From NCBI GenBank assembly GCA_043789195.1, contig JAYWIC010000027.1:2359-66358 (forward strand): DNA of 64,000 nt. The letters run 5' to 3'. The DNA comes from Arenimonas sp. (GTDB taxonomy: Bacteria; Pseudomonadota; Gammaproteobacteria; Xanthomonadales; Xanthomonadaceae). A model generated the notes under the pieces. That model saw only the letters and a program-made list of their open reading frames with translations, made no database searches and had not been told where the DNA came from. The position numbers and the translations under genes are program-made. Shown here piece after piece: positions 8,888 through 12,226 of the stretch. Positions within the stretch are counted from its first letter, which is position 1; every line of letters starts with the position of its first letter.

Positions 8888-9910
8888 ATGAAACTCAAGC
8901 TCGCCATCATCGGCCTCATCATGCTCGGCAATACCGCCTGCGTGACCAGCACGAACAGTTATACCCGCGATATCGTTTATCGCGATGGCAGTTATTACTC
9001 GCCCGCCGATGATCAAAATGGCGATTATTATTACGAGCCTGAGCCCCAGTACGACGAGTACGAATATAACTACGGATTCGGATCAAGTTTTTATGGCAAC
9101 CCGTGGTATAGCCATCACGATGCCTATCGCTGCCGCTTTATCTATCGCTACGATCGTTATTGCGACAATGGCTGGGGCAGTATTTCCTTGAACTTTGGCG
9201 GGATCTCGCTGATCTTCGGAAATTCCCGTTATTACGATGTTGGTTATGGATATGGCTATCCCTACTACGGTTATTACAACCCGCACTACGGCTATTATTC
9301 CCCAAGACCGCGGCCAAACAATGACCCCATTCCGGTGCGCAAGCCATTCAGGCCGGCCATTCAAATTCCCGATAACAGCGTAAGCAACCGGCCGAGCATT
9401 CGAGTCCGCGGTGAGCCGACACGCGTGCCTACCAAACCGGGCGTGCTCGAACCGGACACAATCGAACCAGTGGTCGAATCCAGCGCGGGACAGGATCTCA
9501 ATCCCTACACTCGCATCCGCGAACCAAGACAGAACCGCCGGCCGGAAATATGGCGAGATCGTGATCCCGCGCAGGTTGATCAGGATGACGGCATTCAAAT
9601 CGGCAACAACGAAGCACCGCGCAGTTGGGCAAAGCCAATGCCGGTGATGGATACCGATTCTGATAATCAAACTTATGAAAACCCCGCACCCCGTCAACGG
9701 CAGCCGCTGCCTTATCCGGTCTACGGCGAACCCACCGTAGCGGCCGAACCAGCAGCCGTTCCGGCAGTTCAAGCGCGTACACGTCCCGAGCGGGCAGAAA
9801 GAACCGAACGGACCGAACGACCGGCACGAGCTGAAAGAGTCGAAAGAGTGGAGCGTTCTGCACCGGCAGTTCGCGAGGAAAGCGGAGATAGAGGCAAAGA
9901 GGAGCAATAG
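8888..9910 (+). CDS. Hypothetical low-complexity protein, probable lipoprotein (Tyr/Gly-rich N-half, Pro/Arg/Glu-rich C-half)
   Basis: AGGAG RBS then MKLKLAIIGLIMLGNTAC (signal peptide ending in Cys). Contains YGYGYPYYGYYNPHYGYY and ERAERTERTERPARAERVERVER repeats. Confidence 0.7.
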   Translation: MKLKLAIIGLIMLGNTACVTSTNSYTRDIVYRDGSYYSPADDQNGDYYYEPEPQYDEYEYNYGFGSSFYGNPWYSHHDAYRCRFIYRYDRYCDNGWGSISLNFGGISLIFGNSRYYDVGYGYGYPYYGYYNPHYGYYSPRPRPNNDPIPVRKPFRPAIQIPDNSVSNRPSIRVRGEPTRVPTKPGVLEPDTIEPVVESSAGQDLNPYTRIREPRQNRRPEIWRDRDPAQVDQDDGIQIGNNEAPRSWAKPMPVMDTDSDNQTYENPAPRQRQPLPYPVYGEPTVAAEPAAVPAVQARTRPERAERTERTERPARAERVERVERSAPAVREESGDRGKEEQ

Positions 9911-10088
9911 TTTGTTAAGGCTGCGTGATCACGCTCGCTAAGCACTTATATTATTGACGTAGAGTGTCGCTTTTTGACCTATTCAAGTCGTAGTTTGCTA
10001 GATGCCGGGCGCCGATTCCCCCGGGTCACCTCTGTTCTGAAGAATCATATCGGGGCCTGCATTTTGGGTCCCGCTATAAAATCGGCAT

Positions 10089-10123
10089 AAAAAAAGCCGG
10101 GAGCTCCCCCCGGAGCTCCCAGC
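10089..10123 (-). terminator. Intrinsic terminator on the minus strand with no protein gene upstream of it
   Basis: Minus strand GCTGGGAGCTCC-GGGG-GGAGCTCCCGGC-TTTTTTT: 12-bp stem with one G-U pair, followed by 7 U. Confidence 0.85.
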
Positions 10124-10182
10124 CAGCATTCCTTCATAAACAAATTCGTCCCTGTTCGGCCGAACAAGTTATGGAGGGTGCC
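10089..10182 (-). ncRNA. Candidate sigma54-dependent small RNA (about 95 nt)
   Basis: Lies between a GG-N10-GC promoter (predicted +1 near 10182) and the terminator at 10089-10123. Internal palindrome TGTTCGGCCGAACA at 10153-10166. No plausible ORF inside. Confidence 0.55.
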
Positions 10183-10192
10183 ATTTGTAAAA

Positions 10193-10209
10193 AGCAGGAA
10201 ACATGCCAA
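10193..10209 (-). promoter_or_regulatory. Putative sigma54 (-24/-12) promoter
   Basis: Minus strand TTGGCATG-TTTC-CTGCT against the consensus YTGGCACG-N4-TTGCW, with exact GG-N10-GC spacing. Confidence 0.6.
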
Positions 10210-10333
10210 CAGATCCCGCAATCTTGTTACAAATTGTGTCGTGTTTTTCGCGATTCGCCCGGACTCTCATTTCGACCTGAAATTGCCATCAACACCAAGC
10301 CTGGCGCCAACGCTGGCCACTATCCTTTAAACT

Positions 10334-12226
10334 ATGCAGATGATGAAAAACGATTTCTTCCACTACGATGTCATTGTGATTGGCGGCGGCCACGCCGGCA
10401 CAGAAGCCGCGTTGGCATCGGCGCGCGCCGGTGCACGCACCTTATTGCTAACCCACAGCATCGAAACCGTTGGACAGATGAGCTGCAATCCGGCCATCGG
10501 TGGTATTGGCAAAGGCCATTTGGTCAAGGAAATCGATGCCCTCGGCGGCGCCATGGCGCGTGCTACCGATCGCGCCGGTATTCAGTGGCGCACACTCAAT
10601 GCCAGCAAGGGCCCGGCCGTTCGTGCCACGCGCGCACAGGCCGATCGGCAACTGTACAAATCCGCCATCCGCCATATCGTTGAAACTCAGGAAAACCTGA
10701 CGCTGTTCCAAGCCCCGGTGGATGACATCGTGTTTGAAAATGGCCGTGTCGCTGCCGTGGTCACGCAAAGCGGTTTGCGTTTCAGCACCAAGGCCGCCGT
10801 ATTGACGGCCGGCACATTTCTCGCCGGCAAGATTCATATCGGCCTAACCAACTACGCTGGTGGCCGTGCCGGTGATCCTCCTTCGATGACACTGGCAGAA
10901 AAATTGCGCGATGGACCGTTCGTTGTGGATCGCCTGAAAACCGGCACGCCGCCGCGGATCGATGTGCGTTCCATCAATTTCGAAGGTTTGGAAGAACAAC
11001 CCGGCGATACGCCGATTCCTACCATGAGTTTCATCGGCGAAAAAAGCGAACATCCGCGCCAGATTTCCTGCTGGATAACGCACACCTCCGAACAAACGCA
11101 CGACATTATTCGTGGCGGCCTCGATCGCTCGCCGATGTATGCCGGCGTGATTGAAGGAATCGGCCCGCGTTACTGCCCGAGTATTGAGGACAAAGTGGTG
11201 CGCTTCGCCGACAAGGCTTCGCACCAGATTTTTATCGAACCGGAAGGTCTCGAAACATTCGAAATTTATCCGAACGGCATTTCCACATCGCTGCCTTTCG
11301 ATGTGCAATTTGATTTGGTGCGTTCGATCAAGGGTTTCGAGAACGCGCATATCACGCGTCCGGGTTACGCAATCGAATACGATTATTTCGATCCCCGCGG
11401 TTTGAAAGCATCACTCGAAACCAAGGGTATCCACGGGCTGTTCTTTGCCGGCCAAATCAACGGCACCACCGGCTACGAAGAAGCCGGTGCACAAGGCCTG
11501 ATAGCGGGTTTGAACGCGGCCCGCCAGACGCAGGATAAGCCGGCGTGGACGCCTCGCCGCGATGAAGCGTATATCGGCGTGTTGATTGATGACCTGATCA
11601 CGCATGGCACCACCGAGCCGTATCGCATGTTTACCTCGCGCGCCGAATATCGCCTGCAATTGCGCGAAGACAATGCCGATACCCGCCTGACCGAAATCGG
11701 CCATCAAATGGGTATAGTCGATGAGCAACGCTGGGCGGCTTTTTCACGCAAGGCCGCGGCGGTAAAAACCGAAACCGAACGACTCAATAAACTTTGGGCA
11801 ACGCCGGGTAATGCCCTGGGCGCAGCCGTGCAAGCACAATTGAATGTGCCGATTACTCGTGAATGCAATGTGCTCGATTTAATCAAGCGTCCAGAGATAA
11901 CCTACGCAAGTTTAATGTCGGTCGCGGATCTTGGCCCGGGCGTCAGTGATGAAAAAGTCGCCGAACAAATTGAAATCGGCGTCAAATATTCCGGTTACCT
12001 CGCTCGCCAGCAAGAAGATATCGAACGCAACCGCCGTCATGAGGACAGCGAAATTCCGGATGATTTCGATTATCAAACCATCTCCGGTCTGGGCAATGAA
12101 CTCGAGGCCAAGTTGATGAAAGTGCGCCCGCAAACCATTGGCCAGGCGCAGCGCATTCCGGGCATGACTCCCGCGGCCATTTCCCTGCTTTTGGTCACTT
12201 TGAGCAAACGCCGCCGGGTCGCCTAG
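10334..12226 (+). CDS. mnmG: tRNA uridine-5-carboxymethylaminomethyl modification enzyme MnmG (GidA)
   Basis: [52 protein letters not shown] and [12 protein letters not shown]. Confidence 0.98.

Follow-up and report, generated by a model that had tools for sequence, protein, structure and literature searches.

A shortened Arenimonas orthologue of the Xanthomonadaceae small RNA asX1, with a conserved sigma54-type promoter and a candidate partner hairpin

The window analysed here, a 64,000-nucleotide (nt) stretch of the Arenimonas sp. contig JAYWIC010000027.1, carries on its minus strand, from 10209 to 10089, a short unit that the initial annotation had regarded as a candidate sigma54-dependent small RNA (sRNA) of an undescribed family. 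On the comparative evidence presented below, this unit is a real sRNA gene, and by homology its product is a shortened orthologue of asX1, the Xanthomonadaceae sRNA held in Rfam as RF02235; same-genus intermediates, synteny and a common structure all lead to this known family, and the claim of an undescribed one had to be given up. Together with 6S and sX13, asX1 is among the few sRNAs conserved across the Xanthomonadaceae, and it has stood in Rfam since 2012 without known promoter logic, regulator or function. The explanation that best covers the observations as a whole, and that we consider probable, is that of a shortened asX1 orthologue expressed from a sigma54 promoter, with a putative activator and a putative function in loop pairing. 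What may be new here is the family-wide sigma54 promoter, under the probable control of PilR, together with a conserved neighbouring hairpin of complementary sequence.

The unit lies between two plus-strand genes, being divergent from mnmG, which starts at 10334, and convergent with a lipoprotein-like gene. No conserved protein frame is present in it, in line with the earlier description of a unit without a protein gene; a 16-codon ATG frame at 10183 was considered as a small protein and rejected, as the frame is missing in relatives. The minus-strand sequence TTGGCATGTTTCCTGCT (10209-10193) has its GG at 10207-10206 and its GC at 10195-10194, which gives a spacing of exactly N10, and TGGCATGTTTCCTGCT agrees with the sigma54 consensus at 10 of 12 positions. 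The predicted +1 of an asX1-type transcript falls at 10182-10180, where the initial annotation had also placed it (near 10182), and GGCACCCUCCAUAACUUGUUCGGCCGAACAGGGACGAAUUUGUUUAUGAAGGAAUGCU begins about 12 nt past the promoter. The 5′ end would correspond to the CACC at 10180, the counterpart of position 1 in the Rfam asX1 model, and the 3′ end would lie inside the T7 tract. At this end of the unit, the terminator hairpin GGCTGGGAGCTCC-GGGG-GGAGCTCCCGGCT is found at 10124-10095, with T7 after it at 10095-10089; a terminator scan counts 13 pairs, nine of them G-C, and a 4-nt loop, confirming the GC-rich terminator with U7 that had been noticed before. The 96-nt RNA folds with -46.7 kcal/mol (z = -5.06), a value equalled by none of 200 shuffles. 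The proposal of a stand-alone sRNA gene that lies behind a sigma54-type promoter and ends in an intrinsic terminator is supported.

Three comparative checks had been suggested along with that proposal, namely an Rfam scan, BLASTN against relatives upstream of mnmG and a test of covariation, and each has its counterpart in the present analysis. The Rfam scan of positions 9000-11500 of the window returned nothing relevant, RF02235 giving no match even at E<=10, and RF02235 had no match at E<=1 across the whole source genome; the window copy thus does not reach the gathering threshold of the model (70 bits), and a plain Rfam scan could not reveal the family. BLASTN of relatives recovered seven same-genus copies of the locus, which share the mnmG-divergent position, TGGCAY-N5-NTGC, a 5′ GCACCC and the terminator GGRAUGCUGGCUGGGAGCUCC-GGGG-GGAGCUCCC. 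In the same-genus genome G187 the locus is identical to the one in Arenimonas sp. MALMAid1274. A covariance model (R1) was built from six same-genus copies, the window copy and five others, from the transcript without its promoter. Among 201 Xanthomonadaceae genomes from 64 genera, 65 genomes of 27 genera each contain a single R1 match. A pattern scan of named genomes gave matches in Luteimonas, Stenotrophomonas, Xanthomonas, Arenimonas, Lysobacter, Pseudoxanthomonas, Thermomonas, Aquimonas and others.

The link to asX1 came from the loci of the relatives. An Rfam scan of five of them returned RF02235 ('Xanthomonadaceae sRNA asX1'): two Xanthomonas loci scored 131.5 and 127 bits, and those of Stenotrophomonas, Luteimonas and Arenimonas malthae 92, 80.8 and 74.9 bits, respectively. 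At loci found by both models, the R1 and Rfam scores are 84.9 and 74.9 bits in A. malthae (L052), 82.4 and 77.9 in G147, and 26.7 and 131.5 in a Xanthomonas locus (L044). Same-genus genomes score 67.5-78 bits with RF02235, and in an order-wide sample the matches to this model are confined to the Xanthomonadaceae, bar one weak match. The homology of the window copy to accepted asX1 members is therefore shown via intermediates, the same-genus copies and R1. Of 57 named loci, about 50 show the sRNA and mnmG in divergent orientation, 69-366 nt apart, and the window locus has the same mnmG-divergent position and a single copy in its genome.

It has been established by differential RNA sequencing (dRNA-seq), with Northern confirmation of a product of about 110 nt, that asX1 is expressed in Xanthomonas campestris pv. 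vesicatoria (Xcv) 85-10, at 447108-447223; Schmidtke et al. (2012, Nucleic Acids Research) classed it as 'cis-antisense', observed signals of up to 900 nt and assigned no function (PMC3300014). It has also been annotated, and detected by RNA-seq, in Xylella cells (PMC12189769). The window copy resembles asX1 in its mnmG-divergent locus, 5′ CACC start, closing helix, GAACAGGG loop, G-loop terminator and single copy. It differs in that it measures about 93 nt instead of 115, lacks hairpin 1 (GCGYCAGGGGCGY), has a remodelled hairpin 2 stem and carries GGGA in the apical loop in place of GGGG. The Rfam model misses the window copy because hairpin 1 of the canonical 115-nt form is absent. As the model misses shortened Arenimonas variants, asX1 is under-annotated in metagenome-assembled genomes.

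According to the Rfam alignment, the consensus structure of the asX1 family consists of a closing helix (P1) around two hairpins, followed by the terminator. Within this architecture, in which hairpin 2 has a GGAACAGGGG loop and the terminator a G-loop, closing helix, GAACAGGG loop and GGGG terminator are all recognisable in the window, whereas hairpin 1 is missing from it. The same simplification is seen in the copies of G013, G005 and G022, which like the window copy keep P1, the terminator and a single irregular hairpin whose apex is formed by GAACAGGG. The two strands of P1 pair in single-sequence as well as in alignment folds, and the conserved 3′ strand of relatives reads GGGRAUGC. Covariation was assessed on 33 distinct matches found by R1, blind to the promoter: over P1 and the terminator, standard pairs make up 94.2% of the pair cells and two-sided changes affect 19 of 21 pairs, values reached by none of 500 shuffles, while slid controls are 27-52% paired. 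Two-sided changes occur in seven of the eight pairs of helices 1 and 2, which form the closing helix, and compensatory changes in 12 of the 13 pairs of the terminator stem, where 99.3% of the cells are paired. Closing helix and terminator are thus well supported. Among the unpaired segments, conservation across the family is highest in the apical loop, (G)GAACAGGGG in relatives.

This structure bears directly on the mode of action that had first been envisaged, that of an Hfq-dependent, trans-acting translational repressor with a single-stranded 5′ CCCUCC as an anti-Shine-Dalgarno seed. The 5′ end of the window copy does read GGCACCCUCCAU, an A/U-rich stretch precedes the terminator, and Hfq is encoded in the source genome (contig C193). 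However, the 5′ CACCC is not free, since it forms the 5′ strand of the covarying closing helix, with compensatory changes. Moreover, only CACC(C) is kept in the family and CUCC is not: relatives carry CACCCAACG, CACCUGCC or CACCCGAC, and the forms CACCCAACG, CACCUGCCA and CACCCGACG each come with a matching 3′ partner. The A/U-rich linker taken as a sign of Hfq binding is likewise absent in the G+C-rich relatives, and sX13, the best-studied sRNA of this bacterial family, is independent of Hfq (PMC3771888). A repressor of this kind is very improbable.

One feature of the family that may be new is its promoter. In 33 of 36 promoter-blind matches, TGGCAY-N6-TGC ends 8-11 nt before the start of the R1 match, and because the promoter is not part of R1, its conservation provides independent confirmation. 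The GG-N10-GC promoter with exact -24/-12 spacing of the initial annotation is thereby upheld, although its uniqueness in the window would not have sufficed: TGGCAYG-N5-TGCW has one match in the 64 kb against 0.22 expected, a count that by itself lacks significance, at least one match being present in 18 of 100 shuffles. The Rfam model takes its position 1 from a mapped Xcv read cluster, about 14 nt past the -12 GC, and this 5′ end is compatible with a sigma54 start. A conserved sigma54 promoter throughout the asX1 family is well supported by this conservation. In addition, the source genome, which is 96% complete, encodes one rpoN (219 bits) and enhancer-binding proteins, so that the machinery expected for such a promoter is in place. 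Its best intergenic sigma54 sites precede glnA and two pilin genes; this genome-wide list lacks the asX1 promoter (10/12), which the coding filter removed. A term search of the discovery paper found no mention of sigma54 or RpoN (PMC3300014), and no report linking asX1 to sigma54, RpoN or PilR was found in the open-access literature.

The three exceptions to promoter conservation all belong to one genus, g29 (L013-L015). Their R1 matches have a GCGCCGGGGGGCGU hairpin and a GGGAGUUCC-GGGG terminator, and show neither the sigma54 promoter nor mnmG synteny, the GAACAGGG loop or the partner hairpin described below. They probably represent a separate sRNA made of the same hairpin modules.

Several sRNAs of other bacteria depend on sigma54 and on a dedicated activator, among them Qrr1-5 (LuxO), GlmY/GlmZ (GlrR), CrcZ/CrcY (CbrB) and NrsZ/NfiS (NtrC), as well as Pxr of Myxococcus. 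asX1 resembles them in being a stand-alone gene of similar size with a -24/-12 promoter, an intrinsic terminator and an output that would be gated by an activator. It differs from them in showing no homology in sequence or structure, the window having no Rfam match to any of them, and in a functional motif that is G-rich instead of anti-Shine-Dalgarno or CA-rich; its candidate activator, PilR, is also a different one, and we know of no reported sRNA target of PilR.

Transcription of asX1 would need sigma54 RNA polymerase and an enhancer-binding protein. Only two true enhancer-binding proteins are present in the source genome: NtrC, found with NtrB and scoring 664 bits on TIGR01818, and a PilR-like REC-AAA+ protein that is cut by a contig end and adjoins a PAS histidine kinase. 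The possibility that asX1 is an NtrC/sigma54-dependent nitrogen sRNA, active under nitrogen limitation like NrsZ/NfiS of Pseudomonas, draws on the facts that NtrC is the classical sigma54 activator, that NtrC-dependent sRNAs exist in other gammaproteobacteria and that the source genome has both NtrB/NtrC and a sigma54 glnA promoter. Yet a perfect NtrC box (TGCACAATATTGGTGCA) is present at this glnA but not, by the criterion of >=10/12 matches to TGCACC-N5-GGTGCA, in any of 84 asX1 upstream regions. A complete 2.8-Mb Xylella-like relative (G049, locus L185) retains asX1 (97 bits) and its promoter (TTGGCACGCTTCATGC), and encodes a single activator at E<=1e-20. This REC-AAA+-HTH_8 protein has a histidine kinase and a PilB-type T2SSE ATPase as its neighbours; its identity to the partial PilR-like protein of the source genome is 69%, and to the NtrC of the source genome 38%. 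Xylella fastidiosa, for its part, has been reported to have only NtrC and PilR (PMC3224663). PilR is favoured over NtrC because NtrC boxes are missing and because G049, with a PilR-type activator alone, retains the promoter. The PilR orthologue of the PilS/PilR system, which governs the type IV pilus, appears to be the most likely activator of asX1, with about an even chance of being the right one, while control by NtrC is much less likely and, as an explanation of the gene, improbable. Among the regulons initially proposed, nitrogen finds no support in the 84 regions, and motility, through the type IV pilus and PilR, is the best remaining option.

An enhancer (upstream activating sequence, UAS) would fall inside mnmG or downstream of the sRNA, because mnmG starts as near as 69 nt, and its conserved -10 element lies between its start codon and the asX1 promoter. 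No motif was shared between the asX1 upstream region and the pilA or glnA promoters of the source genome (pilA2 being cut by a contig end), no PilR binding consensus for Xanthomonadaceae was found in the open-access literature, and inspection of the upstream alignment by eye revealed nothing consistent among CbrB-, LuxO- or IHF-like motifs. As a separate observation, a perfect or near-perfect TGTGA-N6-TCACA (Clp/CRP-like) lies about 20 nt upstream of the asX1 promoter in L044, L074, L099 and L105; this palindrome between mnmG and asX1 is seen only in Xanthomonas proper.

The second feature of the locus is a conserved element downstream of asX1 in nearly all genomes, which reads CGGAACAGGGGGGATCC on the asX1 strand and is flanked by covarying stems. 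In the window it corresponds to a plus-strand hairpin about 25 nt past the asX1 terminator, whose loop is GUCACCUCUGUUCUG (GGAUYCCCCCUGUUCC in relatives), with a UUUU tail after it. The loop 16-mer GGATNCCCCCTGTTCC occurs as a single copy in 174 of the 201 family genomes and 60 of the 64 genera, against no match for the reversed control. Several features point to the strand of this C-loop element: its plus strand folds better in 54 of 70 cases (asX1 folds better in the sense strand in 79 of 82), and its stems contain 152 G-U cells compared with nine A-C cells. In Arenimonas-type genomes, a T-run follows the hairpin on its own strand; elsewhere a bidirectional terminator follows. The better folding, the G-U excess and the T-run on that strand indicate that the element is transcribed from the strand opposite asX1. 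No Rfam family matches the hairpin, in the window or at the scanned loci of relatives, and no convincing sigma70 promoter was found for it; it may be the 3′ untranslated region of the upstream lipoprotein-like gene. An opposite-strand frame covering the hairpin ('WIPPVPA') was rejected as a coding explanation, as the covariation of its flanks is that of a stem.

The C-rich loop of the hairpin and the apical loop of asX1 are complementary in sequence. The contiguous helix that the two loops can form measures 8-15 nt, with a mode of 12, compared with 4-10 nt for shuffled loops. This loop-restricted count was used in place of a full-length RNAduplex comparison, in which no more than 19 of 70 real pairs outscored all their shuffles and which was uninformative because a G-rich against a C-rich composition yields long spurious duplexes. 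Among the promoter-blind matches L002-L037, the copies without GAACAGGG (L005-L007 and L013-L015) are also without the C-loop element. The complementarity suggests that the C-loop hairpin and the asX1 loop form a kissing pair, and makes the hairpin a concrete candidate partner for asX1. As in CopA/CopT and RNAI/RNAII, two hairpin RNAs with complementary apical loops (8-15 nt here) converge at one locus; the predicted pair of asX1 and the C-loop hairpin differs from these in that its genes do not overlap, are complementary only in their loops and lie on the chromosome.

The convergent arrangement could also be read as that of a true cis-antisense RNA, acting on plus-strand read-through by full-length pairing or transcriptional interference, with a 3′ extension of the lipoprotein/hairpin RNA or a long mnmG leader as its target. 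This would accord with the name asX1, with the 'cis-antisense' class and the signals of up to 900 nt in Xcv (PMC3300014), with the closeness of the C-loop hairpin RNA to the asX1 terminator and with the weakness of its UUUU tail. Nevertheless, a strong bidirectional terminator separates the asX1 and C-loop genes in many genomes, and a conserved -10 element of mnmG itself lies in the stretch from the asX1 promoter to the mnmG start codon. Furthermore, in L018 and L019 (genus g18) asX1 is inverted, upstream of and co-oriented with mnmG, the C-loop hairpin lying upstream of asX1; that the sRNA is still conserved when co-oriented with both neighbours argues against a purely cis-antisense mechanism. 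We consider such a mechanism unlikely.

Returning to loop pairing, asX1 would act through its G-rich apical loop on RNAs with C-rich loops, a mode of action that we put forward tentatively. The first candidate partner would be the convergent C-loop hairpin RNA, and sX13-type sRNAs with C-loops would be further possible ones; asX1 would then behave as an RNA antagonist or partner, and not as an anti-Shine-Dalgarno repressor with a free 5′ seed. It has been demonstrated that sX13 represses mRNAs, including that of pilH, by CCCC-GGGG loop pairing without Hfq (PMC3771888). The source genome contains a divergent sX13-like sRNA (RF02232; C157:10426-10539, L174) that scores 42.3 bits against a threshold of 50 and has three hairpins with CCCC in their loops. 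asX1 and sX13 come from the same bacterial family, are similar in size, strongly structured and conserved as far as the Xylella-like genome, and carry their functional sequences in apical loops. Their polarity is opposite, since the CCCC loops of sX13 bind GGGG motifs in mRNAs whereas asX1 presents G-rich loops, and asX1 thus looks like a target or decoy of sX13, not its paralogue.

G-rich loops might alternatively serve to bind a protein, as in a CsrB/RsmZ-type sponge that titrates CsrA/RsmA through GGA loops. The window copy does offer ACAGGGAC, GAAGGAAU and GGGGGGAG and, to our knowledge, antagonist sRNAs of CsrA are poorly known in Xanthomonadaceae. However, tblastn finds no CsrA/RsmA in the 96%-complete source genome even at E<=50, the motifs of most relatives read GGGGC and not GGA, and only three or four motifs are present. 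With no CsrA detected and so few GGA motifs, asX1 was not assigned to the CsrA/RsmA sponges, and we regard this explanation as scarcely credible.

The complete model, in which asX1 under the control of PilS/PilR and sigma54 would kiss an uncatalogued, family-wide C-loop hairpin RNA and perhaps also titrate sX13, is speculative and in our judgement rather doubtful. A number of observations weigh against it or against the parts from which it is assembled. As to identity, the Rfam model has no match on the window copy, whose membership rests on transitive homology, synteny and structure. As to control, PilR was assigned by elimination, a procedure that depends on complete activator counts, and no enhancer (UAS) was identified for asX1. 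As to pairing, the loop-loop complementarity in the window amounts to only 8 nt, one G-U included; compensatory changes are missing from the loop pairing, both loops being nearly invariant; and where the asX1 loop deviates (GGAACGGGG, in L030 and L165), the C-loop does not follow. A common protein or DNA-level ligand of the repeated GGAACAGGGG motif is a possible alternative.

If the model held, it would describe a pilus-linked module of RNA-RNA antagonism whose conservation extends from Xanthomonas to Arenimonas and a reduced, Xylella-like genome. The family-wide sigma54 promoter and the probable PilR activator make the function of asX1 directly testable, in a bacterial family to which the plant pathogens Xanthomonas and Xylella belong, as does the opportunist Stenotrophomonas. 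The features of the locus are compiled in Table 1.

Table 1. Features of the asX1 locus and its surroundings (window coordinates).
Feature	Position	Strand	Basis
Sigma54 (-24/-12) promoter TTGGCATGTTTCCTGC, GG-N10-GC	10194..10209	-	sequence, conserved position
asX1-family sRNA transcript, ~92-94 nt (predicted)	10089..10182	-	fold, model R1 93.1 bits, RF02235-positive homologues
Closing helix P1, 5′ strand GGCACCC	10176..10182	-	single-sequence and alignment folds, covariation
Closing helix P1, 3′ strand GGAAUGCU, abuts terminator	10125..10132	-	folds, covariation
Apical-loop motif GAACAGGG	10150..10157	-	fold position, conservation
Intrinsic terminator: 13-bp stem, GGGG loop, T7	10089..10124	-	terminator scan, compensatory changes
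C-loop hairpin RNA (predicted), convergent with asX1	10001..10066	+	conservation, G-U asymmetry, strand folding
Palindromic operator-like element	9951..9980	.	conserved in downstream regions of relatives
mnmG (gidA), divergent neighbour	10334..12226	+	Pfam GIDA, 563 bits

Beyond the C-loop hairpin lies a palindrome, GGTCAAAAAGCGACAC-N-ACGTCA in the window and CGTCnC-AAW-GnGACG-N4-GGTCA in relatives, which was found in 67 of 93 downstream regions. It is essentially a single-copy element in each genome, extra matches staying at the level of the reversed control, and the idea of a regulon-wide (PilR) site was rejected on these grounds. The palindrome would be a locus-specific operator or promoter, and its membership of the asX1 unit is uncertain. 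In relatives, the minus strand after it shows a -10-like TAGCTT or TAGGAT and then a GCG...CGCAAG hairpin.

The lipoprotein-like open reading frame (ORF) that precedes these elements (8888-9910, plus strand) encodes a signal peptide (MKLKLAIIGLIMLGNTAC) with the lipobox LGNTAC and a Tyr/Gly/Pro-rich protein of no Pfam family; comparable ORFs without a Pfam family occupy the equivalent place in the Xanthomonas and Stenotrophomonas loci L099 and L079. On the other side of the sRNA, a probable mnmG -10 element, TAAACT, stands just ahead of the ATG cluster ATGCAGATGATG (10324-10345, plus strand). Because this likely -10 sits directly before the ATG cluster, the mnmG mRNA may be leaderless, or nearly so, in the source genome.

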